This document shows positions 801-48,616 of a stretch of DNA of 64,000 nt, in pieces. The notes below the pieces were generated by a model, which worked only from the letters and a program-made list of their open reading frames with translations, made no database searches and had not been told where the DNA came from. This DNA is from Candidatus Microgenomates bacterium (lineage in GTDB: Bacteria > Patescibacteriota > Microgenomatia > UBA8517). The DNA is taken from NCBI GenBank assembly GCA_049519355.1, contig JBEKQV010000001.1, positions 315,946 through 379,945 on the forward strand. Reading direction: 5' to 3'. Each line of letters begins with the position of its first letter. Positions within the stretch are counted from its first letter, which is position 1. The translations under genes and the position numbers were made by a program.

Positions 801-2000
801 ATGGGAAAAGCTATTAGTCATCAGTCGGTTCTTTTAAAATTCGGTCAAAAGTTGCAAAAGTTAAGGCAATCAAAAGGAATTACTCAGCAGGATGTTATTG
901 ATCGTGAAACTGGCAAAACAGGTAATTCAAATAATAATCCTTCTCCTAACCCTACTAATTCTATGGGTGGAAATTTACCGCCAGTCGGAGGGGGAACAAA
1001 TACCAAACTTCCTCAATCTACTCAGGCGGATGTGGAAAGTTTTAACAATGATGCCATGAATTTATCCCGACAAGCAATGTTGGCCACAGATCCTCAACAA
1101 AAAGCGACTCTAACTGCTCAATCACAAATTCTATCTAACATGGCGGAAGATAGACAAAGTGTTATGTCTTTCAATCCAATAATGGATACTTTGGCAAAAG
1201 TTCAGAAATTCTTGGGTGAATCACAAACCCTTCCATTAGCCAATTCTATATTGGGAAACTTTATTTTACCTATTCCTGGTGCAGGAGCTGGTGTAGGAGC
1301 TTATATTGGAGAAAAAGAACGGGAGATGCTTAGTCCTGGTGGATTGGAAGCTTTTTTAACTCCTCAAAATAGAATGATTGGCCAAGGAGCAACCATGATT
1401 GATCCACAAGCTCTAAAAACGGCCTTTACTTATGGAGTATTAGATTTACTTTTATATGGAGCTGGAAAATTATTACATCCCATACAAACAGTTGCTAAAT
1501 TAAGAGGTGCAGCCGCCGAAGCTGAAACTACCGGAACAGAAAATCTAGCCACTAAAATTGCAGGAGGTAGTTCGGGTGGAGCAAGAGTAATAAATGGGGA
1601 TGATATTGTTTCAGGTGTAAAAGATTGGGCGAACAACGTACCAGCATCAATGAGAGATCAGGCATTGAAATTTTCTCAGGATGTAGAAGATAAATATGCC
1701 GGAAATCAACTTAGTATAGACGATGGCCTTACGGAAAAAACGGCATCGTGGGGTAGAGGGTATACAAATGCTAACATTGAAGGAAGACCCACCGTGGCAG
1801 CAGGTGAAAGAGAGGTTGCAGACCAAATAAGCAAACAGCTTCCTGAAACCATTGCAAAATATGACAAAGTTCTTAGCATGATGTATTCAATTGCAAAACC
1901 TCTTGGAAAAGTAATACCAACCGTGGCTAGAGGAGCATTACAGGCATTAGGAATGGGAGGTGTTTATGAGGCTGGACATAAAGCAGGATTGTTGCCTTAA
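801..2000 (+). CDS. XRE-family helix-turn-helix N-terminal domain fused to a long Gly/Ala-rich C-terminal region of unknown function
   Basis: N-terminus FGQKLQKLRQSKGITQQDVIDRETGK matches the helix1-3 pattern of HTH_XRE regulators (LRxxRxxxGLTQxxL...IERG). The rest is low-complexity (GAGAGVGAYIG) with no recognisable domain. The ORF track starts at TTG 792; ATG 801 is more likely. Confidence 0.5.
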   Translation: MGKAISHQSVLLKFGQKLQKLRQSKGITQQDVIDRETGKTGNSNNNPSPNPTNSMGGNLPPVGGGTNTKLPQSTQADVESFNNDAMNLSRQAMLATDPQQKATLTAQSQILSNMAEDRQSVMSFNPIMDTLAKVQKFLGESQTLPLANSILGNFILPIPGAGAGVGAYIGEKEREMLSPGGLEAFLTPQNRMIGQGATMIDPQALKTAFTYGVLDLLLYGAGKLLHPIQTVAKLRGAAAEAETTGTENLATKIAGGSSGGARVINGDDIVSGVKDWANNVPASMRDQALKFSQDVEDKYAGNQLSIDDGLTEKTASWGRGYTNANIEGRPTVAAGEREVADQISKQLPETIAKYDKVLSMMYSIAKPLGKVIPTVARGALQALGMGGVYEAGHKAGLLP

Positions 2001-2268
2001 TGAATTTTTGAGGCCAAATTGAAAGCAACTGAGGCTATAATCAACCAAATAAATATCTCCAACATAAGTATATTATAATCCTATGTCAGACCTAGATGCA
2101 AATACAGCAAAAGCACTGAAAGTTCCGGCTTCTGATTTACTTCCTTTTTAGTTTCATTGTTATTTTATTGTTCTGAATAATCACCTCACACGTATAGTGG
2201 GAAAAAACTGAAGTTTTCTTAAGTCGTTCGTGCCTGTCACTCTAACCAAAAGTCGGGTTTTGCAAGAC

Positions 2269-2534
2269 TTTAACTTGGTTTATGGTTAATCTAATTTTTA
2301 TATGTGATAGACAACTCCTCTCAAAGCGTCCGAAAATTCGGATTCCGTAGCCTCATACCCATCTGCAAAAACTTAATTTTCTCGAATCGGTGACTCTTTC
2401 CTGTTATTGCCCTGTTCTGAGGATACTTTGACCTCGAACTTATACGAAAAAGTCTAGTAAAATCTAGTTTGTTTTGACTTGGTTTGTAGTCAATTTTAAC
2501 TTGGTTGCAGATTAGATTTTAACTTGCTCTGTAG
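2269..2534. repeat. Four copies of a direct repeat TTTWRACTTGSTYTRYAG inside a 0.9-kb non-coding region
   Basis: TTTAACTTGGTTTATGG (2269), TTTTGACTTGGTTTGTAG (2473), TTTTAACTTGGTTGCAG (2494), TTTTAACTTGCTCTGTAG (2517). The last three are nearly tandem. No ORF of 60 aa or more between 2001 and 2915. Confidence 0.45.
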
Positions 2535-2915
2535 TTAACCAGTTGACCGATTATCTACCGATTCTTTAGCTTCAGTAATCGGTGTAGGGAAACTCCTTTT
2601 TAGTTAGATTCATAATATTTTTTGATATATAGCGGATTATAATGAGACCAGTTCAAAGATGATTCTTGCTACATACAAGGTTCTCTGGAAAAAGAGAAAC
2701 TCCAAAATCTCAAAGCACCTAGCCTATCTAAAGAAAGTGGCAAAGACTTTGAAGATCACTAGGTGATTGGATGATCGTAATCAAATTGTTTTTCTGTTCC
2801 TTTACTGTTATTTACTCGTTTTTCAGGCTAGTAACTATCCCAATCTGTGATTGTTCACTTTGTAATTATTGATTATACTGTGATAAGATAGCCTGCTAAG
2901 TTAAAGCTAATTCTT

Positions 2916-3203
2916 ATGAATGATAACAATCCAAGCCCAAACCTCTCTCCAGACGAACTTACTCGAAAAGGTGAAGAAATATATCTAAACGATCTCAAAG
3001 ATAAATTAGAGCAGACCAATCGTGGTGAGTATGTTGTTATTGAGGTTGATAGTGGAAAATATTTTATAGATAAAGATGTAACAGTTGCTTTGGAAAAGGC
3101 TAAAACTGAGTATCCCCAAAAACTATTTTTTATTGTACAAATAGGCACTCTCCAGAGAAACACACTAAACTACAAACAAGCAAAAAATGAATGGTTATTT
3201 TGA
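2916..3203 (+). CDS. Small DUF5678-like protein (YVVIEVDSGKYFIDKD motif), partner of the downstream aspartic protease
   Basis: 95-aa ORF overlapping the next gene by 17 bp, so translationally coupled. The family assignment is from memory of the small-protein plus retropepsin pairing. Confidence 0.45.
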   Translation: MNDNNPSPNLSPDELTRKGEEIYLNDLKDKLEQTNRGEYVVIEVDSGKYFIDKDVTVALEKAKTEYPQKLFFIVQIGTLQRNTLNYKQAKNEWLF

Positions 3204-3597
3204 CGGCGAACGCATTTATGCGGACATTGAAATAAAAGGTGTTTTCTCTACACAAGCTACCAAATTGAAAGGTCAGATTGATACGGGTTATAGTGGCTAT
3301 CTTTCACTCCCATTTAACGAAGCATTTCCGTTAGGGCTTGTTCTTCAGGGAACGCAAGCATACACACTCGCAGACGGTTCACCTTCTTATAACTTTGTTT
3401 GTTTGGGAACGCTTATTGTAGATGGAAGAGAATTGGTAATTCCCGTAGATGTTTCTGCAAAAGCATCATTACTTATAGGAATTGGCCTTCTTGGTAAAAT
3501 CCAGAACAACTTACTAATAGACTTTGAAAACAAGAAAGTGCTGTTTAAAGAATTTAAGATAAAACCTCCCATTGCATCTAAACCTGTAGAGAAATAG
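3187..3597 (+). CDS. Retropepsin-like (clan AA) aspartic protease
   Basis: Active-site motif GQIDTGYSGYLSLP (hydrophobic-hydrophobic-D-T-G), about 136 aa. The size and glycine-rich flap region are typical of bacterial single-domain retropepsins. Confidence 0.6.
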   Translation: MNGYFDGERIYADIEIKGVFSTQATKLKGQIDTGYSGYLSLPFNEAFPLGLVLQGTQAYTLADGSPSYNFVCLGTLIVDGRELVIPVDVSAKASLLIGIGLLGKIQNNLLIDFENKKVLFKEFKIKPPIASKPVEK

Positions 3598-3697
3598 TTA
3601 AACGTTTATATTTGGAGCAATTGTTGAGTTTGTCGAGTAATTAGCTCAGGTGTGGAAGTTGTTTCACTCCAGTTAGTTGTGCTAAAATCGTCCCATT

Positions 3698-3718
3698 GAG
3701 CGAGCTGGATGGACACCC
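3698..3718 (-). repeat. Degenerate inverted copy of the 31-bp intergenic motif
   Basis: The reverse complement GGGTGTCCATCCAGCTCGCT shares TGTCCATC..AG..GCTCG with copies A-C (see features 4794, 5641, 6365). Confidence 0.3.
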
Positions 3719-3752
3719 TTTAAATGTTGTCCGTTTTTTCATATAGTACATA

Positions 3753-4271
3753 GTGATGGTTGTATATTCTTCAAAGAGAAATTGGACTGATGTTATTTGG
3801 CCCTTGATAATCTTCGTTATCAGTGCGGTTCTTATTTGGAGAAATTCGTGTTTAATATATCCAACGTCTTTTGGTTTAGCAGAATGTTACGCCTCATCGC
3901 TCAAAGAACATTTAATCGTAACAATATTATTGTTTGTTGTTGTATTTTTTTGTTTTATTCTTTACGAAGTATTTTGGAAAAAAGCTTATAAACTCGAATT
4001 GGATAGGGGGTTAATAAAGGAAACGTACGGTAAGGTGGTTAAACAGGCTGTTTTTAAATCCTTAGATTCATTAGATGGGACACAACTGCCTAGTAGAGGA
4101 AGAGGTAGTAATTTTTTCTTTGATTTTCATTTAACACTGGGAGATGGCTCAAAATCCGTTTTTACGACCCGAGGTCAGGCAAAATTACCATACGTTATTA
4201 AGGCTGTAAAGGAGATGTATCCAGAGACAAAGATAAGCGAAATTTTACAAAAGGAATCAGCCAATTTATAA
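3753..4271 (+). CDS. Hypothetical membrane protein (2 TM plus a C-terminal soluble domain)
   Basis: ORF track; hydrophobic segments LIIFVISAVLIW and ILLFVVVFFCFILY. Confidence 0.45.
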   Translation: MMVVYSSKRNWTDVIWPLIIFVISAVLIWRNSCLIYPTSFGLAECYASSLKEHLIVTILLFVVVFFCFILYEVFWKKAYKLELDRGLIKETYGKVVKQAVFKSLDSLDGTQLPSRGRGSNFFFDFHLTLGDGSKSVFTTRGQAKLPYVIKAVKEMYPETKISEILQKESANL

Positions 4272-4319
4272 ATTAATTTTTGAACCTGCCTATTAAGTGA
4301 ACTTGTGATTTTGAAGAAA

Positions 4320-4778
4320 CTACTTTTTAGAGAACCTCTTTTCTGCCTTTGATCCGGCAATCCAACCTACAATTATTGGTAAAACCCCAACGGCAAAATT
4401 AAAGTTTCCAGTCAAGAAATAGTTGACAACTATAATAATTAACTGAGAAATGAGGGCGACTCCCATGGACACATATAGTCCGGCATATCCTCGCCGCAAT
4501 CCCGTATTGAGTCCTTTCTTGAAGGATTCCTTTGCAGCTTTGTAACAGAAAAGGTAAACGAATGGAATAAATATTAGCTGGCTTATGATGGTGGAAGGAA
4601 TTAATAATGATTTAGTTACGTTTGCGTCTATAGATATGTGTTTAGTCAAACCTACGATAACCAGTATTATGAAAATGGTTGCATACTGTAAGCCATACTC
4701 GATAATAACCAGGAAAACTGCCCATTTTAGCATTAATAAAAATCTTTTTCCGTACATTACAAAAATTATAACCCCCAT
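4320..4778 (-). CDS. Hypothetical polytopic membrane protein
   Basis: ORF track; four hydrophobic helices. Confidence 0.5.
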   Translation of the reverse strand: MGVIIFVMYGKRFLLMLKWAVFLVIIEYGLQYATIFIILVIVGLTKHISIDANVTKSLLIPSTIISQLIFIPFVYLFCYKAAKESFKKGLNTGLRRGYAGLYVSMGVALISQLIIIVVNYFLTGNFNFAVGVLPIIVGWIAGSKAEKRFSKK

Positions 4779-5389: not shown

Positions 5390-5650
5390 ATGAAATCCAG
5401 AGTTGTTGTTATAGGGTCACTTATAGGTATTTTGGTTGGGATGGTTCTGGCCTTTTTATTTCCCAGCCTTCTACGTATAGGGTTAGAATTTAATAAAATA
5501 ATTAATAAGGGTTTAGGATACCCAAGTAATTTTTATTTGATAACCAGCGGTTCTGTCTATAATGCATATCCCACAGTCGTTTTAGTTTTCGGTTTAGTTG
5601 GAGCGGTTTTGGGTTTTGTCGCCTCCAAATTTACCCGTAATAGGTTCTGA
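5390..5650 (+). CDS. Small membrane protein (2 TM)
   Basis: ORF track; its last four codons plus the stop lie inside motif copy B. Confidence 0.4.
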   Translation: MKSRVVVIGSLIGILVGMVLAFLFPSLLRIGLEFNKIINKGLGYPSNFYLITSGSVYNAYPTVVLVFGLVGAVLGFVASKFTRNRF

Positions 5651-5672
5651 TACTGTCCATCAGGTGGAGCTC
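5641..5672 (+). repeat. 31-bp conserved intergenic motif, copy B. It contains the small hairpin CTGAT-ACTGTCC-ATCAG and is followed by a sigma70-like promoter.
   Basis: TAGGTTCTGATACTGTCCATCAGGTGGAGCT. Downstream comes TTGATG, a 17-bp spacer, then TAATAT before the PRTase gene. Confidence 0.6.
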
Positions 5673-5704
5673 GGAAAGTTTTCAATTGATGAAAAAAACT
5701 TTTC

Positions 5705-6367
5705 GTGTTAATATCCCGGGTAATGGCTACGGAGATCGGACAAAGAACACAAGATGCGAGACTCCAATTAAAAGAAACAATTTATGATGGTATTACTTAT
5801 GAATGTCCAACATGGGAACAGATGGGATTATTCAATTTTGATTTAGCAAAGCAGGTCATTCAGTGCAGCGAATCTTTTGATAGACTAATTGCCCTTGCAA
5901 GGGGAGGGTGGACTTGGGCAAAAGATTTTGCCGATGCTGTAAAAATTCCAGAGCTTTCTTCTATGAGAATAAAATCCTACTTAGGTGTTAATGAGTCAGG
6001 AGAACCAGAGATCACTCAACCATTAACAGATTCCATAGTTGGGGAAAACGTTCTTTTGTTTGATGAAGTTATTGATTCGGGTAAGACAATTAAAAAGACC
6101 CACGAATACTTAAAAATAATGGGAGCACGAAGCATACGAACAGCCACATTATGCTATAAACCTCATTCTGTAGTAACACCGGATTTTTATGCGTTTCGTA
6201 CTAGTGCGTGGGTTGTTTTTCCTCATGAGACCAGAGAATTTATTGACATCTCAACCAATAAATGGATGTCCGAAGGACTATCAATGGACGAAATTAAAAG
6301 TCGTTTAATTATGATAGGTGTCACTCCTGAACAGGTAGAACTTTATTGTTCCCTGATTGTAAAATAG
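5705..6367 (+). CDS. gpt: Purine phosphoribosyltransferase (xanthine-guanine PRTase-like)
   Basis: PRPP-binding motif VLLFDEVIDSGKT; N-terminal TWEQMGLFNFDLAKQV and C-terminal SAWVVFPHE resemble E. coli Gpt (TWDML... / TWIEQPWD). The true start is possibly ATG 5723. Confidence 0.65.
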   Translation: MLISRVMATEIGQRTQDARLQLKETIYDGITYECPTWEQMGLFNFDLAKQVIQCSESFDRLIALARGGWTWAKDFADAVKIPELSSMRIKSYLGVNESGEPEITQPLTDSIVGENVLLFDEVIDSGKTIKKTHEYLKIMGARSIRTATLCYKPHSVVTPDFYAFRTSAWVVFPHETREFIDISTNKWMSEGLSMDEIKSRLIMIGVTPEQVELYCSLIVK

Positions 6368-6395
6368 GTTCTGAATCTGTTGATCAGGTGAAGCC
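6365..6395 (+). repeat. 31-bp conserved intergenic motif, copy C
   Basis: TAGGTTCTGAATCTGTTGATCAGGTGAAGCC; starts at the TAG stop of the PRTase gene. Confidence 0.6.
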
Positions 6396-6432
6396 AGTTG
6401 TTTATTGCATGAATAGGGATCTTATCGGGTCC

Positions 6433-6891
6433 TTAATGAGTTTTGTTGGAAAACAGGGCAAAGAGTCTTTCAATAGCGTTTTTCTTTTCTGAGGCTTCTG
6501 GGGCAGGAGTTTGCCCGGTTTGAGGGGGATTTACGGCTTTGTGGAAAAAACTCATCGCTTTTTCGTGTTTTTGGATCTCTTGATGTTCTTTTTGTGCCTC
6601 GTGGAAAAATTTCATGGCTTCCTCGTGAGTTCTGGGCAGAGGGGGTTGCGGAGCATCTTCAACAAACGGCGGCACCTCCTTAACAAAAGGGGGGACATAT
6701 ACCTTCCCGGGTGGTTTTTCGGGTGTGGGCCAGCCGTTTTTTTGAACGTTGGCTAGAGATTTTTTGAGAGCATCAACATCAAGCCCTTTTTTTTCGGGGG
6801 CGGGAGCTTCGGTATTAACTTCTTTTGATTCTTCCACATAACGATTGTAGCTGACATTTTGAAGACATTGCAAGTTGAAATTATCTTGCAA
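6433..6891 (-). CDS. Hypothetical Pro-rich protein with an internal repeat (EAMKFFHEAQKEHQEIQKHEKAMSFFHKA)
   Basis: ORF track. TTG start, so the start is uncertain. A 14-bp perfect inverted repeat overlaps the start. Confidence 0.35.
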   Translation of the reverse strand: MQDNFNLQCLQNVSYNRYVEESKEVNTEAPAPEKKGLDVDALKKSLANVQKNGWPTPEKPPGKVYVPPFVKEVPPFVEDAPQPPLPRTHEEAMKFFHEAQKEHQEIQKHEKAMSFFHKAVNPPQTGQTPAPEASEKKNAIERLFALFSNKTH

Positions 6892-6898
6892 TGTCTTC
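6861..6898. other. Perfect 14-bp inverted repeat (hairpin) with a 10-nt loop
   Basis: GAAGACATTGCAAG ttgaaattat CTTGCAATGTCTTC, seen directly. No T-run follows on either strand. Confidence 0.5.
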
Positions 6899-6992
6899 CC
6901 TTTGGTGAGCTGAGATTTCTGCCGATTCTGTTTGTACTTTCAGGCAAATTGAAATTGTGGAGATTGTAGACTTTTAGTAAATCCTGTACGGA

Positions 6993-7358
6993 TTGCATTC
7001 TACAAGGGGAGCTTCGTTTCAGACTTTTTTTGCCAATATCGTAGACTCAAGAATCTATTGGGTATATGCTTGTCATATGGCCTCACCTGCACAAATAATT
7101 GCCTTAATTTTTGTTATTCTTGGACTTTTAAGTCTTATTCGCTGGTGGTGTATGGGATTTCCGAAAAAGAAATATCCATTATGGCCATTTGTACTGATAA
7201 TTCTCGCTGTGTGGGCCATTTTATTGCTTGTTGCATGGTTTACCAGCAGCCAATCGCAATTTAGGGAGTTTGTTGCGACCTGTAAAGGCTACCTAATAGG
7301 AATGTTTGTTATGTATATCGCAATGCGTGCTGCTGGGTGGAAAGGGGGTGAAAAATGA
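6993..7358 (+). CDS. Small membrane protein (start probably at the internal MASPAQII, 7078)
   Basis: ORF track; 2-3 TM helices; overlaps the next gene by ATGA. Confidence 0.4.
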   Translation: MHSTRGASFQTFFANIVDSRIYWVYACHMASPAQIIALIFVILGLLSLIRWWCMGFPKKKYPLWPFVLIILAVWAILLLVAWFTSSQSQFREFVATCKGYLIGMFVMYIAMRAAGWKGGEK

Positions 7359-7546
7359 AACTTAAGCATTTTGGGTTTTGGGATATTGGGCTGACAAAGT
7401 GGTCGGTGCTGTTTTTTACTCTATTTGTAGTTTCTGTCTGGCCGGCGTTTGCCCACTGGGTAGAAAGCATTAATTGGGTTTGGTTTTTGGTAATAGCATT
7501 GATCCTAGGTGCAAGACCTTTCCTGGATTTTTTAAAAAGTAATTGA
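7355..7546 (+). CDS. Small membrane protein (63 aa, 2 TM)
   Basis: ORF track; ATGA overlap with the upstream gene. Confidence 0.4.
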   Translation: MKLKHFGFWDIGLTKWSVLFFTLFVVSVWPAFAHWVESINWVWFLVIALILGARPFLDFLKSN

Positions 7547-7561
7547 GAGTACAATGTAATC

Positions 7562-7750
7562 ATGGGGCTTGCCACAAAACTTGTTATCTTTGCCGCAATT
7601 ATAATCTCCATCAATAATTTTGTGTTGTACTGGGCTATTAAAAATAACGGGATAAACTCGAAAGGGCATTCATTTGGCACAATAGTATTTTTGATCAGTC
7701 TTATCGAAATTGTGGCAATTGGAATTTATGGTTATATCCACTTAAAGTAA
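7562..7750 (+). CDS. Small membrane protein (62 aa, 2 TM)
   Basis: ORF track. Confidence 0.35.
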   Translation: MGLATKLVIFAAIIISINNFVLYWAIKNNGINSKGHSFGTIVFLISLIEIVAIGIYGYIHLK

Positions 7751-7803
7751 TTGCTACTCTCTCCATATATGTCGCTGCGTGACAAGATTTGGTAAAATAA
7801 CAT

Positions 7804-8136
7804 ATGGCTAATAAGAATATTGTTCGGCCAGCTCGCCACAAGGTTTCCGGCGGCGTGGTTCATAAACTGCCTGATGATCTGAAGAAAGTTTTGATCTCTG
7901 ATCCCAAAGCATTGGCAATATGGGAGAGTCTTACGCCTTTGGCCAGAAACGAATGGATTTGTTGGACAATTAATGTTAAAAAGCAGGAAACTAGGAGGGA
8001 TCATGTTAAAAGAGTGCAAAGTGAGCTTAAAGAAGGAATGCGCCGTCCTTGTTGTTGGATTGGTTGCATTCATAGGAAAGACAAACCACTGAGTCCCTCC
8101 GTACAATATGTACTGAGTAGACGGCAGGGGAGATGA
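7804..8136 (+). CDS. YdeI/OmpD-associated (OmdA) family protein
   Basis: Motif AIWESLTPLARNEWICWTINVKKQETRRDHVKRVQSELKEG matches the YdeI/OmpD-associated family pattern (WExLxPxxRREYIxWIxxAKKxETRxxRI). Confidence 0.5.
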   Translation: MANKNIVRPARHKVSGGVVHKLPDDLKKVLISDPKALAIWESLTPLARNEWICWTINVKKQETRRDHVKRVQSELKEGMRRPCCWIGCIHRKDKPLSPSVQYVLSRRQGR

Positions 8137-8206
8137 AAGGCTGCGCTCCTAACACTGGGTAAAAGAAGTCTATTAAAGGTGGTTGGGTAAATAGTATAAT
8201 GATTCC

Positions 8207-8593
8207 ATGATTAAGATAGCTGACAAAGGAAATACGGTTATAGAAATCGCAAGAGGGTCTCAAGAAAATTATGAACAATGGTCAGTATATCCTCATAAGG
8301 TAGACGATCCCACCTTTCAAAAACTTACGAATGAACAGCAGAATCTGGCAAAAGAATTAAGCATAACCGGAATCAGAAACAGAGAAGATCTTTTTAGTCA
8401 TTTAATGAATCAAGATATCGCGGAAGCGATTGCAAGACTTAATGATAATCTCAGTTCCCCAAGATTTAAAGGCCTTGGACTTGTTGCAAATAAAATAGGT
8501 ATTGAACCCACGGGCGAGATTGCACAGATATTGGAACAGAAATACGGAATTAAGTCGGTTGAAGGTGATACTCCTGCAGAAACAAAAGGTTAA
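8207..8593 (+). CDS. Hypothetical protein
   Basis: ORF track, 128 aa. Confidence 0.4.
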   Translation: MIKIADKGNTVIEIARGSQENYEQWSVYPHKVDDPTFQKLTNEQQNLAKELSITGIRNREDLFSHLMNQDIAEAIARLNDNLSSPRFKGLGLVANKIGIEPTGEIAQILEQKYGIKSVEGDTPAETKG

Positions 8594-8622
8594 TCTTTCT
8601 ATAAGTAGAAGGAGGGTAATTA

Positions 8623-9096
8623 TTACTTTTCCTTAGTCGAGGCGGCTTTCTTGGTTACTTTCTTGACTTTAGGGACTTTTACTTCTTTTATAACTTTTTC
8701 CTCTATAACTGAAGGTGCCTGGGCCACAGTCTCGATAATTTTGGGTTGCAAAAGGTTTAAGATTTTATCCAATTTAACATTTATAGCCTCGATCTGAGCT
8801 TTGCTTTGATCAAAACTTGGGGCTTGGGGTCTAAATTCGCTTCTTTCGGGACGTCTGGAATCAGACCTTCCACCGTTTATTTTCTCAAAACAGTCGCTGC
8901 AGTAAACCGGTTTGCCGTTTGTGGGTTTAAAAGGAACTTGGCATTCCTTGCCGCAGTTACTACAGATGGCTGAGAACATTTCTCTATTGCCTCCGAAAGA
9001 AGATCTTCCGCCTCTAAATCCACCTCTACCTCCACCACGGGAGAAACCACCACGGTATCCACCTGCGCTTCTATCATCTCTGTTGAAATTTCCCAT
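8623..9096 (-). CDS. CxxC-x17-CxxC zinc-ribbon protein with an N-terminal RGG/Gly-Arg-rich region
   Basis: CSNCGKECQVPFKPTNGKPVYCSDC has exactly 17 residues between the CxxC pairs; the N-terminus reads GGYRGGFSRGGGRGGFRGGR. Confidence 0.6.
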   Translation of the reverse strand: MGNFNRDDRSAGGYRGGFSRGGGRGGFRGGRSSFGGNREMFSAICSNCGKECQVPFKPTNGKPVYCSDCFEKINGGRSDSRRPERSEFRPQAPSFDQSKAQIEAINVKLDKILNLLQPKIIETVAQAPSVIEEKVIKEVKVPKVKKVTKKAASTKEK

Positions 9097-9155
9097 AGTC
9101 TGTATTATATCATACTTCTAGCCAATATTGTGAGCAATTTGGTTTGAGGCCTTTT

Positions 9156-9695
9156 TCAGGTTTTGGAGGCACCATTGAGCTCTTTGTCGAACTTCTCCTT
9201 GGATTCACCTATAATTTTATAAGCTTCCCTTTTCCCCACCCATCCTTTAATCTTTACCCACTTGTTTTCAAGCTTTTTATACGTTTCAAAGAAATTCTGA
9301 ACCTCTTTTTTAAAGTGGTCGGGTAGATCGGAGATCGCATCTATGTGCTTATTTCTAGGGTCTTTTTCTGCAACCGCCACAATTTTATAGTCTCTGCCGC
9401 TTTCGTCTTCCATATCCAGTACCCCAATAGGTTTGACCGAAACAACGCAACCGGGGAATACCGACTCAGAGATAATCACCAAGACGTCAAGGTGATCTCC
9501 GTCATCTGCTCTTGTTTCTGGAATAAAGCCATAATCGACCGGATAAAAAACCGAAGAGTAAAGGACTCTGTCCAGCCTGATCTCGTCTAATTTTTCATCA
9601 TACTCGTATTTGTTGTGGTTTCCTTTTGGGATTTCAACGACAGTGTTTATTATTTCGGGGGCTTTGTCTCCTAAAGTCAATTTTGAATACGCCAT
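9156..9695 (-). CDS. ppa: Inorganic pyrophosphatase
   Basis: DYGFIPETRADDGDHLDVLV and the other family I PPase signatures. Confidence 0.9.
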   Translation of the reverse strand: MAYSKLTLGDKAPEIINTVVEIPKGNHNKYEYDEKLDEIRLDRVLYSSVFYPVDYGFIPETRADDGDHLDVLVIISESVFPGCVVSVKPIGVLDMEDESGRDYKIVAVAEKDPRNKHIDAISDLPDHFKKEVQNFFETYKKLENKWVKIKGWVGKREAYKIIGESKEKFDKELNGASKT

Positions 9696-9728
9696 ATCAG
9701 AAGATATTAATGCAAACGACGTCTTTTT

Positions 9729-11441
9729 TCAATTAATCTTGGAGGTTTCTTGGGACTTGGCAGCCTTTATAAACGCCAGAAAGACAGGGTGTGGGGTTAA
9801 AGGCCGGCTGATATATTCCGGGTGGAACTGTGTCCCGATGAAGAAAGGATGATTTTTGAGTTCTATCGCTTCCACCAGTTTACCATCCGGGGATGTTCCG
9901 GAAATGATAAAACCCGCTTTTTCAAATTGCTTTTTATATAAGTTATTGAATTCGTATCTATGTCTGTGCCTTTCGAAGATAATCAGCCTTTTATCCGATT
10001 TAAATTTTGCCTGGGCACTGTCTTTTGGCTGAAACCAGGGGGCGTTATCAACATTTCCGTATTTTTTATAACAGTTTTCCAAGACCGTTCCGGGCGAAAT
10101 TATGCATGGCCAGGCGCCGAGTCTTATCGTTCCTCCATATTGATGCTTTGCCAGATATTCTTTCTGGTCTTCAATAACATGAATCACAGGATATTTTGTT
10201 TTTGGATCAACCTCGGAACTATTGGCACCCTTTAAATGGAGAACATCCCGTGCAAATTCTATTGTTGCCATTTGCATGCCGAAACAAAGTCCAAGGTACG
10301 GAATTTTATTTTCCCGGGCAAATTTTGCAGCCATTAATTTTCCTTCCGTGCCTCTGGAACCCCAGCCTTGCGGGACAATTATTCCACCAAATCCTTCTAA
10401 GGTCTTTTTGCCTGTTTCCAGTTCCTCGCTGTCTATCCAGGTTGTTTTTACGTTTACGCCTATAACTGAAGCCGCGTGTCTTAGGGATTCGATTACCGAA
10501 ACGTATGAATCGGCCAGTTGATATTCTCCGGTAACAAAGTATTTCCCGACGATGGCGATTTTAACATCCTTGGGATATTTTTTATTGATTCTCGCAGTCA
10601 TTTCCTGCCATTTTTTGATTGTATGATGCTTGTTGCTGGTAAGTCCCAGAAGCTTCAGGCAAGTCGAAGCCAAATGGTGGTGTGGTTTATGGAAAAGCTG
10701 CGGTACGTCATAAATCGTATTCAAATCCGGGACCGAAAATAATCTGTCGGGGGTGATATTGCAAAAAAGTGCGAGTTTGTCCAGACGTTTTTTATCAATC
10801 GGGAATTCGCTTCGGGCAACAATTATATCGGGTTGAATTCCCAGGCTGTTCAATACATGAACTGAGGTTTGGGCGGGTTTACTTTTTAGTTCTCCAACAT
10901 TGGCGAGGTAGGGGAGATAGGTTACGTGTAAGTGTATTACGTCTTTAGGGTATTTTAACTTAAGAATTCTTGCCGCTTCAAAGAAAATTCCGTTTTTATA
11001 TTCCCCTACAGTGCCTCCATATTCGACGATGACGATCTCGGCATTATTTACTTCTCCGGAAAGTTTTATTCTTCTGATGATTTCGTCGGTAACATGAGGA
11101 ATAACATCAACAGTGTCTCCGCCGTATTCAAACGATCTTTCCTTGCGGATTACTTCGCCATAGACCTGCCCGGCTGTAACATAGTTTTCTCTTCTGAGAT
11201 TCTCATGAACAAATCTTTCGTAATGACCTAAATCTTCATCTGTTTCCATCCCATCATGAGTTACAAAAACTTCCCCGTGCTCCTGTGGTCTAAGCGTTCC
11301 GGCATCAACATTAAAGTACATATCGACTTTTGTGGGGGTAACTTTATATCCGCGGGATTTTAGAAGGAGAGCTAAAGAGGAGACGGTAATGCCTTTACCT
11401 AGGCCTGAAACAACTCCGCCCGAGACGAAGATGAATTTCAT
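9729..11441 (-). CDS. pyrG: CTP synthase
   Basis: N-terminus MKFIFVSGGVVSGLGKGI; glutamine amidotransferase domain GLCFGMQ; 570 aa. Confidence 0.95.
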   Translation of the reverse strand: MKFIFVSGGVVSGLGKGITVSSLALLLKSRGYKVTPTKVDMYFNVDAGTLRPQEHGEVFVTHDGMETDEDLGHYERFVHENLRRENYVTAGQVYGEVIRKERSFEYGGDTVDVIPHVTDEIIRRIKLSGEVNNAEIVIVEYGGTVGEYKNGIFFEAARILKLKYPKDVIHLHVTYLPYLANVGELKSKPAQTSVHVLNSLGIQPDIIVARSEFPIDKKRLDKLALFCNITPDRLFSVPDLNTIYDVPQLFHKPHHHLASTCLKLLGLTSNKHHTIKKWQEMTARINKKYPKDVKIAIVGKYFVTGEYQLADSYVSVIESLRHAASVIGVNVKTTWIDSEELETGKKTLEGFGGIIVPQGWGSRGTEGKLMAAKFARENKIPYLGLCFGMQMATIEFARDVLHLKGANSSEVDPKTKYPVIHVIEDQKEYLAKHQYGGTIRLGAWPCIISPGTVLENCYKKYGNVDNAPWFQPKDSAQAKFKSDKRLIIFERHRHRYEFNNLYKKQFEKAGFIISGTSPDGKLVEAIELKNHPFFIGTQFHPEYISRPLTPHPVFLAFIKAAKSQETSKIN

Positions 11442-11529
11442 TTTTCAAATGAAATTCCATCACACGATGTCAACTTCATGAGTCGTATCATAAGCTAATT
11501 AAAAGCTCTTTTCAAATAGCAAAATATAC

Positions 11530-11913
11530 TTATTTTTCAACTTCAAACCAATCAATCGGAGTTTGTTCGTCCGGTTCGCCGTTATAATTAACCGTTATTT
11601 CCTCACCCTTTTTTATTGGTTTAATGGCTCTATAAACCATGGAAACTGTTTTGAAATTTTGTTTCCAGTCTGCGTTCGGATGATAGGAGTGATTGTAAAT
11701 TGAACCGTATCCCAAAATCAGGGATGCCCCGCGCGTGCTTCTCCAGGGGTAGATGTAATAATTTAAAGAGGTTTTTTCCAACTGCTTCCGTTCTTTGGTG
11801 TTAAAAGTAAGTACCGGACAGTTCTCAATCACATCACCGACTTTAAAATTGCGGGCGGCAAAAACCCCTCGACCCTTTTTTGCGACTCTCCTGACAACTA
11901 TGTTTTTCCTCAT
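11530..11913 (-). CDS. SET-domain protein (putative lysine methyltransferase)
   Basis: GRGVFAARNFKVGDVI ... NHSYHPN ... EEITVNY are the classic SET motifs (GxG, NHSCxPN, ELxxDY). Confidence 0.7.
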   Translation of the reverse strand: MRKNIVVRRVAKKGRGVFAARNFKVGDVIENCPVLTFNTKERKQLEKTSLNYYIYPWRSTRGASLILGYGSIYNHSYHPNADWKQNFKTVSMVYRAIKPIKKGEEITVNYNGEPDEQTPIDWFEVEK

Positions 11914-11937
11914 TTATGTATAATATCTTATCTTATT

Positions 11938-12921
11938 ATGAAAACTTGGCAAAGAATCAAGGACAATCCAAATCTTTTGAACCAATATCTGGTTCGGGAA
12001 AAAGTTATTGATACGATCCGCTATTTCTTTAAGTCTCAGGGCTTTCACGAAGTTTTTACTCCGGAGCTGGTTCCTGTTCCTTCCATTGAACCAAACTTGG
12101 AAGTTTTTGAAACCGAACTTAGAACATCTAAAGGATTGAAACGCCGAGGATTTCTAATTATGAGTCCGGAGTTTTCCATAAAGAAACTTTTGTCCGCGGG
12201 AGTAGGGAATTGTTTTGAAATTACAAGATGTTTTAGAAATGAAGAAGAAGTAAGTTCTCTCCACAACCCCGAATTTACGATGCTTGAGTGGTATAGGGTT
12301 CAGGCCGATTATACGGATGTAATGAAAGATTTTGAACAGCTTTTTACTAAGATTATTATGGAGGTTAATCCCAAGGTCGATTTATCGAAGTGGAAGTACC
12401 AGGGTGAAACCTATGATCTTTCGCTTCCTTGGCCGAGAATCAGTTTTGAAAGGGCTTTCGCCAAATTTGCCGGGAAAAAGATCGAGGATGTAAAAGATGA
12501 AGATTTTTATCAAATCTTCTTTAATGACATTGAGCCAAAATTAAGGGAAAGTGGAAGACCTGCAATTATTTACGATTATCCGATTTCACAGGCGGCTTTA
12601 TCCCGACCGAAGGCATCGGATCCTAGGTTTGCCGAAAGATTTGAAGTGTTTTTAGCAGGAGTTGAGCTGGGAAATTGCTTTTCGGAGCTGACAGACGCAG
12701 TGGAGCAAAAGAAGCGCTTTGAATCGGACTTGACTCTCCGCCGGGCCCAGCATAAATCGGATTATCCGATTGATGATGATCTGATAGATGCTCTCGAGGC
12801 GGGCTTGCCTCCGGTTTCGGGAATTGCAGTTGGAGTGGATAGACTTATTATGCTTGCCGCCGATGTTCCTTCAATTGCAGACACCTTATTTTTTCCGGGT
12901 AAGGAGCTATTTGACCTCTAA
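11938..12921 (+). CDS. epmA: Elongation factor P--(R)-beta-lysine ligase (class II LysRS paralog GenX/PoxA)
   Basis: Class II aaRS motifs FEITRCFRNE and GLPPVSGIAVGVDRL. It is a truncated LysRS-like protein of 327 aa located directly upstream of efp. Confidence 0.8.
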   Translation: MKTWQRIKDNPNLLNQYLVREKVIDTIRYFFKSQGFHEVFTPELVPVPSIEPNLEVFETELRTSKGLKRRGFLIMSPEFSIKKLLSAGVGNCFEITRCFRNEEEVSSLHNPEFTMLEWYRVQADYTDVMKDFEQLFTKIIMEVNPKVDLSKWKYQGETYDLSLPWPRISFERAFAKFAGKKIEDVKDEDFYQIFFNDIEPKLRESGRPAIIYDYPISQAALSRPKASDPRFAERFEVFLAGVELGNCFSELTDAVEQKKRFESDLTLRRAQHKSDYPIDDDLIDALEAGLPPVSGIAVGVDRLIMLAADVPSIADTLFFPGKELFDL

Positions 12922-12949
12922 GGCCTCCAGGCATTAAAATACGCGTGCG

Positions 12950-13516
12950 GTGGATACAATTAATGCGGGTAATATTACAAAAGGTAGCTTCATTATTTTT
13001 AAGGGAGCTCCGGTACTGATCACAAAGGCTGAATTTATGTCGCCCGGAAAGGGCTCTCCTGTTATGCGGATAAAGTTTAAGAATGTACAAACAGGTTCCG
13101 CGGGGGAGTTTACTTATAAAACAGCCGAGACAGTCGAGGTTGCGGAAGTTGAGAAAAAAGAAATGGAGTACCTCTATAGAGATGGTGATGACTTGGTATT
13201 TATGGATCCGAAATCTTATGATCAGGTTTCAATTCCTATGAGTTTAATTGAAGGACAATTTGGCTACTTAACCCCAAACCTTAAATGTTGGATTGTCTGG
13301 TATAAAGGCAAAGCCATTGGTGCGGCGCTTCCGACTCATGTAACTTTGCAAGTGACCGAATCCCCGGATGAGGTTGCCGGAAACCGTTCCAATGCTCCCA
13401 AAAAGACTGTGAAGTTGGAAACCGGAACCACGGCCCAAGTGCCGCTTTTTATCAAGGTCGGTGAAAAGGTTATGCTGGATACGGCAACCGGTGAATATTT
13501 GGGTAGGACAAAATAA
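12950..13516 (+). CDS. efp: Elongation factor P
   Basis: 188 aa, KOW-like N-terminus with the modified-lysine loop SPGKGSP; typical EF-P length. Confidence 0.9.
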   Translation: MDTINAGNITKGSFIIFKGAPVLITKAEFMSPGKGSPVMRIKFKNVQTGSAGEFTYKTAETVEVAEVEKKEMEYLYRDGDDLVFMDPKSYDQVSIPMSLIEGQFGYLTPNLKCWIVWYKGKAIGAALPTHVTLQVTESPDEVAGNRSNAPKKTVKLETGTTAQVPLFIKVGEKVMLDTATGEYLGRTK

Positions 13517-13562
13517 TTAAAATTTTCAGTGCTTCTTCAGGAAACGATGCTTTAATTTCTCA

Positions 13563-14096
13563 ATGGACGAAGTTAAAGAAGAAAATAAAGAAATATCCCC
13601 AAAATCCTCAAACTCTACATTGTATTTAGTTTTTGTAATTATTCTTTTAGTGGTTGCCGGCGGAGCGTTTTATTTCGGTAGAAAATCAGGTGAAGCAAAG
13701 ATGACTGCTTTTTATCAAAGCCAGCCAAAGCCTTCGGGAATGGGAATACCAAGACCTTCCGGTCCTCCAAATTTTAAAGGACAAAAATTATCTGATGTTC
13801 AAATGCTTTCCAGTGCAACTCTTATTTATCCTGGGGTTTCTAATACGGATGTTAATAGAACTCTTATTAATTGGACACTTTCGACTACGCAAAATTCGGA
13901 TGGCACAGTGACAGTGAAATTAACCCCTGCTGAGCCGGAGGCTACAGAGGGTGATACTACCCAGACTTTTACTGTCAAACCCGGTGATAAACTCTATTTT
14001 GACGACTTAAATCCAAACGATGACCAACCCGGAATGGATGTTAACACTCATGATGACCTGGGGATTTTAGTAGACAGCAACGGGATTATTCAATAA
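13563..14096 (+). CDS. Hypothetical membrane-anchored secreted protein
   Basis: ORF track; a single N-terminal TM. Confidence 0.4.
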   Translation: MDEVKEENKEISPKSSNSTLYLVFVIILLVVAGGAFYFGRKSGEAKMTAFYQSQPKPSGMGIPRPSGPPNFKGQKLSDVQMLSSATLIYPGVSNTDVNRTLINWTLSTTQNSDGTVTVKLTPAEPEATEGDTTQTFTVKPGDKLYFDDLNPNDDQPGMDVNTHDDLGILVDSNGIIQ

Positions 14097-14143
14097 CCAC
14101 AACTTTAAGCTTCAGTTGTTCCTTTAGAGTAAAATGATTACAA

Positions 14144-14383
14144 ATGTTAATTGAAGTTGTGGGGTGGATCGGGACCGCACTGATTTTGGCAGCCTACCTC
14201 TTGGTTTCTATAAAAAAGATTGGACCAACTTCAAAAACATATCAATCTTTGAATTTATTTGGAGCAATTGGAGTTGGTGTAAATTCATTAGTCCACAGAG
14301 CGCTTCCGTCGGTTGGAATTAATTTTGCCTGGATGTTAATAGCAATCTATGCGTTGGTAAGAAGCAGAAAAGAATTGAAGTAG
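14144..14383 (+). CDS. Small membrane protein (79 aa)
   Basis: ORF track. Confidence 0.4.
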   Translation: MLIEVVGWIGTALILAAYLLVSIKKIGPTSKTYQSLNLFGAIGVGVNSLVHRALPSVGINFAWMLIAIYALVRSRKELK

Positions 14384-14384
14384 A

Positions 14385-14849
14385 TTATGGTTTGGCCACA
14401 TGCCAGGTCCCATTAATTCCGTCTCCAGTCATATCTCCCGGAACTTGGTCGCCGGAGTAATAGTAAAGAGGGCGTCCTTTATATACGAATTGCATAGAAC
14501 CGGTTGGCCCGGCCGCGGTAGTAACTCCGGTTGGGAGATTGGTCGGTACAGTGGATGTTACATATGCCGGCCAAATCCCGGCGCACGTTCCAGTGCACGT
14601 ACTTACGCCTTTTGTATCGTTATCAAACACATAAAGTGTCATGCCGCTTGCTCCGACTAAGTAGTTGCCTTTTGCTCCCGACATTGTCGTAATAACATTT
14701 CCAGAAACAGGAGTGATAGGTGCGGTCGAACTGTTGGATGGAGAGATGCTATATGCACCCGAGAACAAAGCTTTGATTTGGTGTCTTCCCAAATATCCAA
14801 GAACTAAAACTACAATTATGACTGCAATCCAAACCCAAGCCTTTTTCAT
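14385..14849 (-). CDS. Secreted or lipoprotein of the COG4315 / Yx(FWY)xxD-repeat family
   Basis: GMTLYVFDNDT...CTGTCAGIWPAY and GRPLYYYSGDQ follow the repeat pattern GxxLYxFxxD...C..C...WP. Confidence 0.55.
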   Translation of the reverse strand: MKKAWVWIAVIIVVLVLGYLGRHQIKALFSGAYSISPSNSSTAPITPVSGNVITTMSGAKGNYLVGASGMTLYVFDNDTKGVSTCTGTCAGIWPAYVTSTVPTNLPTGVTTAAGPTGSMQFVYKGRPLYYYSGDQVPGDMTGDGINGTWHVAKP

Positions 14850-14902
14850 AACAATTGATGTTACAAATCCGTTACACTATTTGTCAAGTGATAGAATAAG
14901 TT

Positions 14903-16674: not shown

Positions 16675-16741
16675 TCGAATATTATAATAACAGTTTCTTT
16701 AATATGGCTGAAGAGACAGTGAGGAAAAATATGGTGTAAAA

Positions 16742-18345: not shown

Positions 18346-18536
18346 ATCCTGCTCGGGTTTAGTTGGGCTCTGGATATGACAGTAGCGGCACTTCTACGGA
18401 ATTCCGCCGTAATTCACCAATTGCCTAAATGTACTTTTAAGTTCGTTTTTGGTCAAGTAGTAGTTTGAGTTTCAAGGTACAACGAGCCCAGCGGAAAAAA
18501 TGCGTTAAATTTGCGGTAAATTTAAATTATTATTAT

Positions 18537-18565
18537 TTGACAAACAACCTTTTAAGTGCTATTTT
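18537..18565 (+). promoter_or_regulatory. Candidate sigma70-type promoter for the gene at 18575
   Basis: TTGACA (18537-18542), a 17-bp spacer, then TATTTT, about 10 bp upstream of the ATG. Confidence 0.3.
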
Positions 18566-18574
18566 GCGCTCAAT

Positions 18575-19012: not shown

Positions 19013-19058
19013 ACTAGGGCGTATCCATAATGTAATATAGGTTTAGGAGGTGATTTTT

Positions 19059-19969: not shown

Positions 19970-19973
19970 CAAT

Positions 19974-20423: not shown

Positions 20424-20427
20424 AAAA

Positions 20428-46976: not shown

Positions 46977-46984
46977 CTTCTTTG

Positions 46985-48404: not shown

Positions 48405-48410
48405 ATCTTG

Positions 48411-48604: not shown

Positions 48605-48616
48605 CTAAGCAAATAT

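Follow-up and report, generated by a model that had tools for sequence, protein, structure and literature searches.

Intergenic gaps in a Candidatus Microgenomates (CPR) genome are typically very short, and one of 0.9 kb that carries four similar direct repeats raises two questions: what this DNA is, and whether the repeats are sites for a protein. The locus was analysed within a window, by which we mean the whole 64,000-nt stretch of chromosome to which all positions refer; some of the searches covered 73 kb.

A non-coding gap in a compact genome

Positions 2001–2915, no strand assigned: non-coding gap of 915 nt (35% G+C), longer than any other in the window.

The ORF-free gap described by the original prediction is real. 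It contains no ORF of at least 60 aa, whichever stop codons are read as sense, and is the largest gap in a window for which a greedy gene model gives a median intergenic distance of 27 nt. Within 2001–2872 the only ORFs of at least 30 aa lie at 2659–2766 (35 aa) and 2771–2872 (33 aa), and the longest stop-free stretch in the gap spans 65 codons. Stop-codon recoding of the kind found in some phages was ruled out, as no long frame opens in the gap; TGA, TAG and TAA were each taken as sense in turn, and each of the three occurs 4–14 times in every frame. No gene has been called in the gap in any of 8 assemblies. Eight independent metagenome assemblies give the same sequence apart from a single mismatch, and this agreement indicates that neither the gap nor its repeats are an assembly artefact.

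A phased array of 22-nt repeats

Positions 2269–2290, plus strand: repeat unit 1, TTTAACTTGGTTTATGGTTAAT, with the dyad TTAAC-N10-GTTAA.
Positions 2473–2494, plus strand: repeat unit 2, TTTGACTTGGTTTGTAGTCAAT, with the dyad TTGACT-N8-AGTCAA.
Positions 2495–2516, plus strand: repeat unit 3, TTTAACTTGGTTGCAGATTAGA, with the conserved head and no dyad.
Positions 2518–2539, plus strand: repeat unit 4, TTTAACTTGCTCTGTAGTTAAC, with the dyad TTAACT-N8-AGTTAA.

Four direct repeats of about 17 bp had been proposed, three of them nearly tandem. The four copies are indeed present, but a 17-nt consensus recovers only three of them at up to two mismatches, and a better description of the repeat is a 22-nt unit in which a head of 9 nt is conserved. 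The copies share 73–82% identity with the reference copy and are spaced by 204, 22 and 23 nt. All four occurrences of the 9-mer TTTRACTTG in the 64 kb fall in the gap. A weight matrix scores the four copies at 25.8–31.7 bits, against 15.0 for the next best site on either strand of the 73 kb; the 22-nt motif is absent from the rest of these 73 kb. A pattern made of two units matched IMG/VR at 62 places, all of them single chance matches without the dyad or additional copies.

The arrangement is not random. When arrays of at least three phased copies were sought across the window, this array was the only one found, and any array at all appeared in just 1 of 100 dinucleotide shuffles, in keeping with the iteron- or binding-site-type layout first suggested. 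The dyad TTRAC-N10-GTYAA is present in three units, versus 0.38 expected, a count reached in none of 100 shuffles. In unit 2 both half-sites carry a substitution relative to the remaining units, A to G in one and T to C in the other, which preserves the symmetry. Deviations are concentrated outside the head (1 of 36 positions in the 9-nt head versus 13 of 52 elsewhere in the unit; Fisher p = 0.006, for a head register picked after the data had been seen). A CRISPR array was rejected as an identity for the repeats, since the units abut with 0–1 nt between them.

The array also lies within a larger, old direct duplication, of segments about 140 nt long.

Positions 2151–2289, plus strand: duplication segment A, with two YTGTTMT words 12 nt apart and repeat unit 1 at its end.
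Positions 2396–2538, plus strand: duplication segment B, laid out as segment A but with the unit triplicated.

Local alignment of the two segments gives a score of 48, compared with 23.7 ± 3.5 (maximum 38) for 300 shuffles. Two further features are found on the 3' side of the array.

Positions 2546–2583, no strand assigned: 8-bp inverted repeat, ACCGATTA / TAATCGGT, immediately 3' of the array, with a second ACCGATT at 2557–2563 (read from the sequence).
Positions 2595–2645, no strand assigned: the gap's AT-richest stretch, about 55 nt 3' of the array (exact coordinates read from the sequence).

A weak hairpin is predicted to pair 2557–2563 with 2577–2583. The AT-richest 50 nt in the gap have an AT fraction of 0.80, corresponding to the 99.5th percentile of the window; in a profile with a step of 25 the peak is 0.76 and starts at 2601.

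Signals for transcription, RNA structure and replication

Positions 2872–2899, minus strand: promoter-like match TTAGCA-16-TATAAT, agreeing with the consensus at 10 of 12 positions.

This match is the best of the region and is directed leftward into the gap; the total number of promoter-like matches in the region does not exceed the shuffle expectation. No terminator-like site was found in the gap region. Such a promoter, together with tandem repeats that lie upstream of a small gene pair, could conceivably belong to a gene for an RNA built of repeats, as are type III antitoxins with ToxI-like tandem repeats, or for a large structured RNA of the kind borne by phages. The array region does fold slightly better than its shuffles (z = −2.3 to −3.0), but z-scores are near 0 over the rest of the gap, with no significant fold outside the repeats; the hairpins of the individual units are weak (0 to −3 kcal/mol) and unit 3 is unable to form one. 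The Rfam scan proposed for this hypothesis returned only noise, both for the whole window at the gathering score and for the gap at E up to 10. The units measure 22 nt and only three are tandem, and the neighbours include no ToxN-like gene and give no PADLOC match, which together with the missing terminator makes an RNA gene highly improbable. For a ToxIN-like type III toxin–antitoxin system in particular, rejection follows from the 22-nt units, where tandem repeats of about 34–37 nt would be expected, the lack of a terminator-like site and the distance of 377 nt to the next gene, itself without a PADLOC match. More generally, PADLOC defence-system models gave nothing relevant on the neighbouring proteins.

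No DnaA box with up to one mismatch occurs within the gap. A chromosomal oriC was discarded on this ground and on that of the skew, which is near 0 and not negative in 2 kb of the left host flank.

The upstream ORF is a chimera

Positions 801–2000, plus strand: chimeric 399-aa ORF, the start of an XRE repressor joined to the C-terminal part of a phage protein.

The gap directly follows an ORF that had been taken for an HTH (XRE-like) fusion protein, with the repeats as its regulatory hub. BLASTP aligns residues 13–32 of this ORF with the XRE protein of a related element, L101, at 55% identity, and aligns 361 residues at 45% identity with P0002, a 619-aa phage protein. The latter homology relates residues 21–375 to the C-terminal part of P0002 (259–596). 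The contig encoding P0002 (L010) is that of a phage, with SU10-adaptor, Laminin_G_3, SLT and CHAP genes. The N-terminal portion of XRE-type repressor origin amounts to about 30 residues; of the XRE domain itself the first 20–25 or so are retained, which take in helix 1 and the beginning of helix 2, and the recognition helix is missing. The two parts meet at a microhomology, GIT.(Q/E)DV, that is common to both parents. By these alignments the supposed fusion protein is a deletion chimera, a scar and not a regulator.

The adjacency of the gene to the gap, and the resemblance of its residues 6–32 to the beginning of an XRE/C-protein HTH domain, are what suggest that its product binds the repeats. 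A PADLOC 'control protein' match is likewise confined to positions 6–30. However, no Pfam HTH domain is matched at E up to 10, where the intact relative matches HTH_3 at 3.6e-16, and what follows the truncated helices is a phage-protein fragment. Moreover, the intact XRE protein of L101 has other candidate operators (TAAWCATTTTACAT, present twice). Regulation of the hub type is scarcely credible for such a protein.

The phage parent bears on another possibility, namely that the gap is a decayed remnant of lysis or late genes, such as those located 3' of the homologous gene in intact phages, and that the repeats within it are incidental. On contig L010, SLT, CHAP and other genes come after the gene for the 399-aa protein's homologue; these are missing here, and the island in which the gap lies has undergone deletions. 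Against this, tblastn with all proteins of L010 and of L011 found no match in the gap. Comparison of the gap with 1 Mb of fetched loci by tblastx and blastn returned nothing, and blastn against phage and plasmid collections gave no match; in these sets the gap shows no trace of a pseudogene. The short stop-free stretches noted above also speak against decayed genes, which would moreover leave the phased array unexplained, and we give this origin only a slim chance.

The downstream gene pair appears unrelated to the gap

Positions 2916–3597, plus strand: overlapping genes for a 95-aa protein and a 136-aa, clan AA aspartic-protease-like protein, forming a mobile two-gene module.

The pair begins right after the gap and on the same strand, and the gap could in principle be its upstream control region or long 5' leader, with the repeats as operators for the pair's own product. 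Homologous pairs were identified in four other, unrelated genomes, where they stand behind housekeeping genes with upstream gaps of 0–324 nt and without the motif. The start codon is 377 nt beyond the end of the array, and a DNA-binding domain was detected in neither protein. A leader or operator function for the pair is thus very unlikely, and the link that had been drawn between gap and pair falls away; judged from these homologues, the two seem to be neighbours without connection. As to the labels given to the pair, DUF5678 was not reproduced by Pfam, and retropepsin is weakly supported, by a match to the clan AA protease model TIGR03698 (E 8.6e-7) that is below its cutoff. Nothing usable was found in the literature on DUF5678 or on CPR prophages with serine recombinases.

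The gap lies in a decaying prophage island

The gap is located inside a low-GC island of about 12 kb, with a G+C fraction of 0.33–0.40 inside and 0.40–0.45 outside. It begins about 7.1 kb before the window, at a tRNA-Asn gene that is overlapped by the 3' end of a large serine recombinase gene. The recombinase (534 aa) contains the Resolvase and Recombinase domains (PF00239 and PF07508) and matches the phrog_95 integrase at 1.4e-66. Its position at one end of the island, next to the target gene, is that expected of a large-serine-recombinase element, and relatives adjoin tRNA-Asn or tRNA-Leu. From G+C alone, we infer a right border near window position 4800. No attR in the form of a second tRNA-Asn fragment was found in the 73 kb, and two 9-mers of the gap (2398–2406 and 2411–2419) match the attL region at chance level.

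The island encodes an AAA_25/RecA-like helicase whose C-terminal tail is winged-helix-like, a protein with a CHC2 primase zinc finger, and an excisionase-like HTH_17 protein. The primase zinc-finger protein lacks a catalytic domain, and the replication module is inverted with respect to relatives. The helicase and primase genes are 4.8–5.9 kb from the array, next to which there is no initiator-like or regulator gene, its neighbours being the phage-protein chimera and the protease-like pair.

The suggestion of an iteron set belonging to an integrated element fits this context, as the serine-recombinase element lies directly upstream and the gap is within its low-GC island. The best explanation of the gap is that it is non-coding DNA within a partly deleted, rearranged prophage island of the Candidatus Microgenomates chromosome. 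Gap and repeats are most probably an ordinary mobile-element relic and not a new kind of system. The island resembles cryptic or grounded remnants of prophages at tRNA genes in its integrase by a tRNA gene, its low G+C, its chimeric and truncated genes, its lost distal att site and its orphan non-coding stretches. What sets it apart is that its integrase is a large serine and not a tyrosine recombinase, and that it resides in a CPR bacterium.

The array is absent from related elements

The gap and the motif are both missing from intact relatives, represented by a full prophage and a circular element of 9.2 kb. Relatives of the helicase are encoded in a full prophage with a Laminin_G_3 module in which a Laminin_G_3 protein of 1215–1220 aa is followed by a 268-aa gene; the module is of the same kind as that of phage contig L010, which encodes the 399-aa protein's homologue. 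Neither an exact TTTRACTTG nor a cluster occurs in L101 (a complete circle), L112, L117 or L118, and there is no comparable array in these four or in L113, L098, L010 and L011. The helicases of the relatives that lack the array are nevertheless 64–80% identical to that of the island, and in its C-terminal tail the L101 helicase reaches about 80% identity (compared by eye on ORF translations). Since the array is absent from L101, L112, L117 and L118, it is not a conserved origin of the element family.

All genomes that carry the locus are clonal, with 100% identity over 21 kb, and so give no sign of selection on the array. Synteny was not found in sister genera; a genome scan anchored on the phosphoribosyltransferase gave relatives at the level of Levybacteria only.

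Comparison with known iteron and operator systems

Iteron origins include the R6K gamma ori and pSC101 (iteron period of about 22 bp) and RK2 oriV; in the lambda ori, four dyad-containing iterons are followed by an AT-rich region. The array in the gap resembles these in having three tandem direct repeats with a 22–23-bp period (at 2473, 2495 and 2518, within the range of 17–22-bp repeats at approximately whole helical turns), partial dyads and an extra distant copy. An AT-rich stretch is likewise located about 55 nt 3' of it, and the host element encodes a helicase and a primase-type protein. Unlike iteron origins, however, the array adjoins no initiator (Rep) gene, is accompanied by no DnaA box and comprises 3+1 copies only. 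It is also missing from the 9.2-kb circular relative and from others with similar helicases; in the eight loci examined, no array is conserved even by position.

In the satellite phage P4, crr consists of two direct repeats of about 120 bp with iterons bound by the alpha primase-helicase, and lies about 4.5 kb from ori. The iteron-bearing segments of the gap are similarly duplicated in direct orientation, several kb from the gene for a helicase/primase with a winged-helix-like tail. In contrast to P4, the element has no second iteron cluster that could be the ori proper; its helicase is AAA_25/RecA-like and not P4 alpha, and the motif is unrelated.

The lambdoid operators OR1–3 and OL1–3 each comprise three dyad-symmetric repressor sites with a 23–24-bp period. 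Three tandem sites at 22–23 bp, two of them with a clear dyad (units 2 and 4), and one more distant site are present in the gap, at a locus that formerly held an XRE-type repressor gene. The array nonetheless lacks flanking divergent promoters and regulator genes, the truncated XRE gene being 1.5 kb upstream. The half-site centres are about 14 bp apart, which exceeds the distance typical of HTH dimers, and the candidate operators of the related XRE gene that is still intact are not the same.

Origin and possible role of the array

In the favoured history, a deletion brought together the 5' end of the XRE repressor gene of the element and the 3' part of a gene from a phage, and the gap comes after the resulting chimera. 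A segmental duplication of about 245 nt, followed by local triplication, created the cluster of units. These are best taken as putative DNA sites for a sequence-specific DNA-binding protein: with TTTRACTTG recurring every 22–23 bp, or about two helical turns, the three tandem sites would lie on roughly one face of the helix, each unit offering a partial dyad, with the fourth site 204 bp upstream. The array may once have been part of the control or origin region of a phage whose genes have since been deleted. We tentatively favour the view that it is an iteron- or operator-like protein-binding cluster, either a relic or possibly still active, a view that we put forward as quite possibly, though short of probably, correct.

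The main rival to a binding array is neutral duplication in junk DNA. The gap would then be a functionless relic of decayed phage DNA in which segmental duplication, and slippage or unequal recombination, triplicated a 22–23-nt unit that nothing binds. The decay of the island, evident in the chimeric ORF, the primase zinc finger without its catalytic domain, the inverted replication module and the missing attR tRNA-Asn fragment, agrees with such a history, as do the restriction of the motif to this element among its relatives and the lack of an adjacent cognate gene; two duplication events suffice to derive all four units. Drift, however, should spread changes evenly, yet they are few in the head and many in the remainder of the unit, and the dyad has been kept in three units, in one of them with both half-sites altered. 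Binding sites would be expected to lie about two helical turns apart, as the units do, and pure junk of 0.9 kb should be short-lived in a CPR genome in which gaps are so small. We regard neutral duplication as unlikely, but as an explanation to be taken seriously.

A more specific form of the binding-site reading is that the array is a working cis-acting site for replication or maintenance, serving as an origin or as an enhancer in the manner of P4 crr. Its partner would be an island-specific protein for which searches of family libraries and of the related elements detected no homologues, for example the 223-aa protein or the zinc-ribbon-like 204-aa protein. We consider this doubtful. If true, a phage or plasmid of Microgenomates would have a candidate cis-acting replication element defined by its sequence; a limited literature search found none described.

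A decaying prophage island explains the odd gap in a very compact CPR genome, and the main value of this result is a corrected annotation. To our knowledge, neither defined cis-acting sites nor genetic tools exist for Candidatus Microgenomates, and if the array turned out to work as an origin or operator, it would offer a handle on the replication or control of mobile elements in these bacteria. The element family may be of greater value than the gap itself, as it comprises serine-recombinase elements at tRNA genes, among them a full prophage, a circle of 9.2 kb and short remnants.

The gap and its coding status

The gap (window 2001-2915) is the longest in the window, where the median intergenic distance under a greedy gene model is 27 nt, and both its unusual length and its lack of any ORF of at least 60 aa agree with the original prediction. 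Only two ORFs of at least 30 aa are present, at 2659-2766 (35 aa) and 2771-2872 (33 aa), and their number and length are at chance level for AT-rich sequence. The two lie in tandem; the 35-aa peptide is very basic, and the 33-aa peptide is hydrophobic and Cys-rich, with AGGTGA four nucleotides 5' of its ATG. In all eight independent assemblies, gene callers left the gap empty. Reading TGA, TAG or TAA as sense yields no long frame: all six frames contain 4-14 stops of every type, which excludes a gene recoded in the manner of some phages.

No translated or nucleotide similarity was found between the gap and the genes that follow the homologue of the upstream 399-aa protein in two fetched loci (L010 and L011), although these donors are only ~45% identical and old pseudogenes would escape such a comparison. 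Comparison with all fetched loci and with the GenBank phage and PLSDB plasmid collections likewise gave no translated or nucleotide similarity. That the gap represents pseudogene remains is improbable, and this would leave its repeat array unexplained. Other readings of the gap carry smaller weights.

The surrounding island

Exact-protein look-ups in JGI, ENA and Logan assemblies recovered the locus and extended it upstream by up to 10 kb. The copies are identical over 21 kb, save one mismatch in one contig, and the population carrying the locus is clonal. The additional sequence contains the following features (L094 is an extended contig in which position equals window plus 9200).

Features upstream of the window
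L094 2040-10100: integrated element, just upstream of the window
L094 2040-2112: tRNA-Asn
L094 2073-3677, minus strand: large serine recombinase, 534 aa, with Resolvase and Recombinase domains
Within the element: AAA_25 helicase, matching phage primase/helicase families
Within the element: CHC2 primase zinc-finger protein with no catalytic domain
Within the element: HTH_17 excisionase-like protein, 59 aa

The recombinase matches the phrog_95 integrase (1.4e-66), and the 3' end of its ORF overlaps the 3' half of the tRNA-Asn, with the stop codon in the anticodon loop. Several other proteins of the element have no family match. In the fetched locus L096 (5754-6362, minus strand), the sole recognisable part of a 202-aa protein is a CHC2 DnaG-type zinc finger, located at the very C-terminus; the gene overlaps the helicase gene start and encodes no TOPRIM or catalytic primase domain.

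The left host flank has a G+C content of 0.43-0.45; between the tRNA and approximately window 4800 the value is 0.33-0.40, and beyond that point 0.40-0.43. The gap falls within this low-GC island. The island is a prophage that has been rearranged and is decaying, and the gap is a non-coding part of it.

The repeat array

The four direct repeats of the original prediction were recovered by a repeat finder as a four-member family of 22-nt units at 2269, 2473, 2495 and 2518 (spacings of 204, 22 and 23 nt; 73-82% identity to the reference copy). The word TTTRACTTG occurs four times in 64 kb, always within these units. With a weight matrix built from the units and scanned over both strands of the window and 9.2 kb upstream, the units score 25.8-31.7 bits and the next best site 15.0. 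It is the only phased array of at least three copies in the whole window, where each copy had to agree with the next at 10 or more of 12 positions and the spacing, within 15-40 nt, had to be near-constant; such an array arose in one of 100 dinucleotide-preserving shuffles. The internal dyad TTRAC-N10-GTYAA is present in three units, against 0.38 expected, and no shuffle reached three. In unit 2 both half-sites are altered together (TTGAC/GTCAA versus TTAAC/GTTAA). Deviations from the consensus number 1/36 in the first nine bases versus 13/52 in the other thirteen (Fisher p = 0.006, with the register picked post hoc). The repeat family is non-random: the array is phased, locally unique and statistically supported, and its units have a partial dyad and a 9-bp head that is conserved.

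The unit at 2269 does not stand alone: a local alignment of segments 2151-2289 and 2396-2538 scores 48 (shuffles 23.7 +/- 3.5, maximum 38), and both segments have two YTGTTMT words 12 nt apart at the start and a unit at the end. The four units thus go back to a segmental duplication of ~245 nt and a local triplication. Neutral duplication in junk DNA might by itself have given the array, a reading we consider somewhat less likely than protein-binding sites.

Features directly downstream of the array
2546-2583: 8-bp inverted repeat ACCGATTA/TAATCGGT, directly 3' of the array
Near 2595-2645: AT-richest stretch of the gap, after the inverted repeat

With 0.80 AT, the AT-richest 50-nt segment of the gap stands at the 99.5th percentile for the whole window. 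The gap also holds, at 2398-2419, TTCCTGTTA, which matches the anticodon arm of the left-junction tRNA-Asn, and, 4 nt away, CCTGTTCTG, which in reverse complement gives the 9 nt immediately 3' of that tRNA. Neither match exceeds chance (E = 22 for each), and the estimated p for the pairing is 0.1-0.2. An old attachment site might conceivably have left this pair.

RNA and transcription signals

At the gathering score, Rfam identified three tRNAs in the whole window and otherwise nothing; within the gap, no credible match appeared at E up to 10. Sliding-window folding of both strands gave z ~ 0 in the gap but -2.4 to -3.0 over the array, an effect of the unit dyads. The hairpins that single units can form are weak (0 to -3 kcal/mol), and unit 3 has no hairpin. 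A search for terminator-like sites found none, and promoter-like matches are not above the expected count, the best (2899-2872, minus strand) being directed into the gap.

Elsewhere in the window, a tRNA-Ile with anticodon TAT (UAU) lies at 46984-47056, near two tRNA-Met(CAT) genes (48410-48480 and 48531-48605). Most bacteria use a TilS-modified CAU tRNA in place of tRNA-Ile(UAU).

The flanking genes

A search of 5.8 billion proteins gave only three homologues of the 399-aa protein encoded directly upstream of the gap. Two diverged homologues (619 and 641 aa) match it via their C-terminal 340-370 residues, and one of these is encoded in a phage contig with SU10-adaptor, Laminin_G_3 (1215 aa), SLT and CHAP genes. 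Residues 13-32 share 55% identity with the N-terminus of a 73-aa XRE protein from a related element, and the junction is at a GIT.(Q/E)DV stretch common to both parents. The protein has no Pfam HTH at E up to 10, whereas the intact relative matches HTH_3 at 3.6e-16, and the PADLOC XRE-type "control protein" model covers positions 6-30 only. The "HTH fusion protein" is a deletion scar without a recognition helix. The proposal that the repeats form its binding hub fails, because a protein lacking that helix cannot be the binder.

The 95-aa and 136-aa genes downstream occur together in other CPR genomes, where the preceding gene is a radical-SAM gene, a phosphatase, Ddl or metK. By the NCBI name of the 136-aa protein, the organism studied here is a Candidatus Microgenomates bacterium. 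The 136-aa protein matches the clan AA aspartic protease TIGR03698 at 8.6e-7, below the family cutoff; the DUF5678 label was not reproduced by Pfam. Upstream of the homologous pairs the gaps measure 0-324 nt and the array motif is absent; the gap is no feature of the pair. In L121, one such locus, a G+C-rich region of 324 nt with palindromes (1858-2182) separates divergent metK and a homologous 94-aa/140-aa pair.

Relatives of the element

The helicase has many homologues in Patescibacteria. In loci L113/L115 a 79%-identical helicase lies within a full prophage, ordered as SecA, then recombinase, CAP and HTH_17, further on the helicase, then Laminin_G_3 (1220 aa) and later a 268-aa gene. The succession of a 1215-1220-aa Laminin_G_3 and a 268-aa gene is common to this prophage and the phage contig with the chimera homologue. 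Locus L112 has the same site and host but only a remnant: downstream of secA, ~7 kb from recombinase to helicase is followed by ClpB, versus the full prophage with its Laminin_G_3 structural module in L113 (the two assemblies compared at positions 5974-21044). The two are a natural deletion series of a CPR phage family, in which deletion derivatives are therefore common.

Contig L101 (1-9302) has an exact 127-nt terminal overlap and hence corresponds to a circular element of 9,175 bp. Its helicase is 80% identical to that of the window element (the C-terminal winged-helix-like tail likewise ~80%, compared by eye in ORF translations). Also present are HTH_17, an intact XRE gene and a different, 522-aa serine recombinase. 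Between the last two, an inverted repeat at 5640-5695 (27-nt arms, 2-nt centre) is a textbook-looking candidate attP. Relatives of the recombinase adjoin tRNA-Asn (L103) or tRNA-Leu (L107-L109).

No long gap, exact TTTRACTTG or comparable array occurs in L112, L113/L115, L101, L103 or L107-L109, in spite of the close similarity of the L101 helicase tail. The array is therefore not the conserved origin of this element family, but this island could still have a module of its own that included it. A viral contig, L098, encodes a primase-helicase 35% identical to the element's helicase and has a 1.2-kb stretch (3212-4387) without an ORF of at least 50 aa, with no repeat array or Rfam match.

Origin and meaning of the array

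A tandem or nested insertion at the tRNA-Asn may plausibly have come first. A later deletion would have taken one attR and the left part of the older prophage, producing the XRE::phage-protein chimera and leaving the gap as orphaned non-coding DNA of the older phage. The array geometry resembles that of iterons or tripartite operators (22-23 bp period, extra distal copy, AT-rich stretch nearby). We tentatively regard the array as candidate protein-binding sites, relic or active. We infer that a DNA-binding protein recognises, or once recognised, the units, which were probably part of the region that controlled the deleted phage genes or served as the origin of that phage.

The array is a familiar kind of feature in a familiar setting, a cryptic prophage, and its interest lies only in the host being a CPR bacterium. 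In CPR bacteria, serine-recombinase elements whose targets seem to be tRNA genes may merit separate study.
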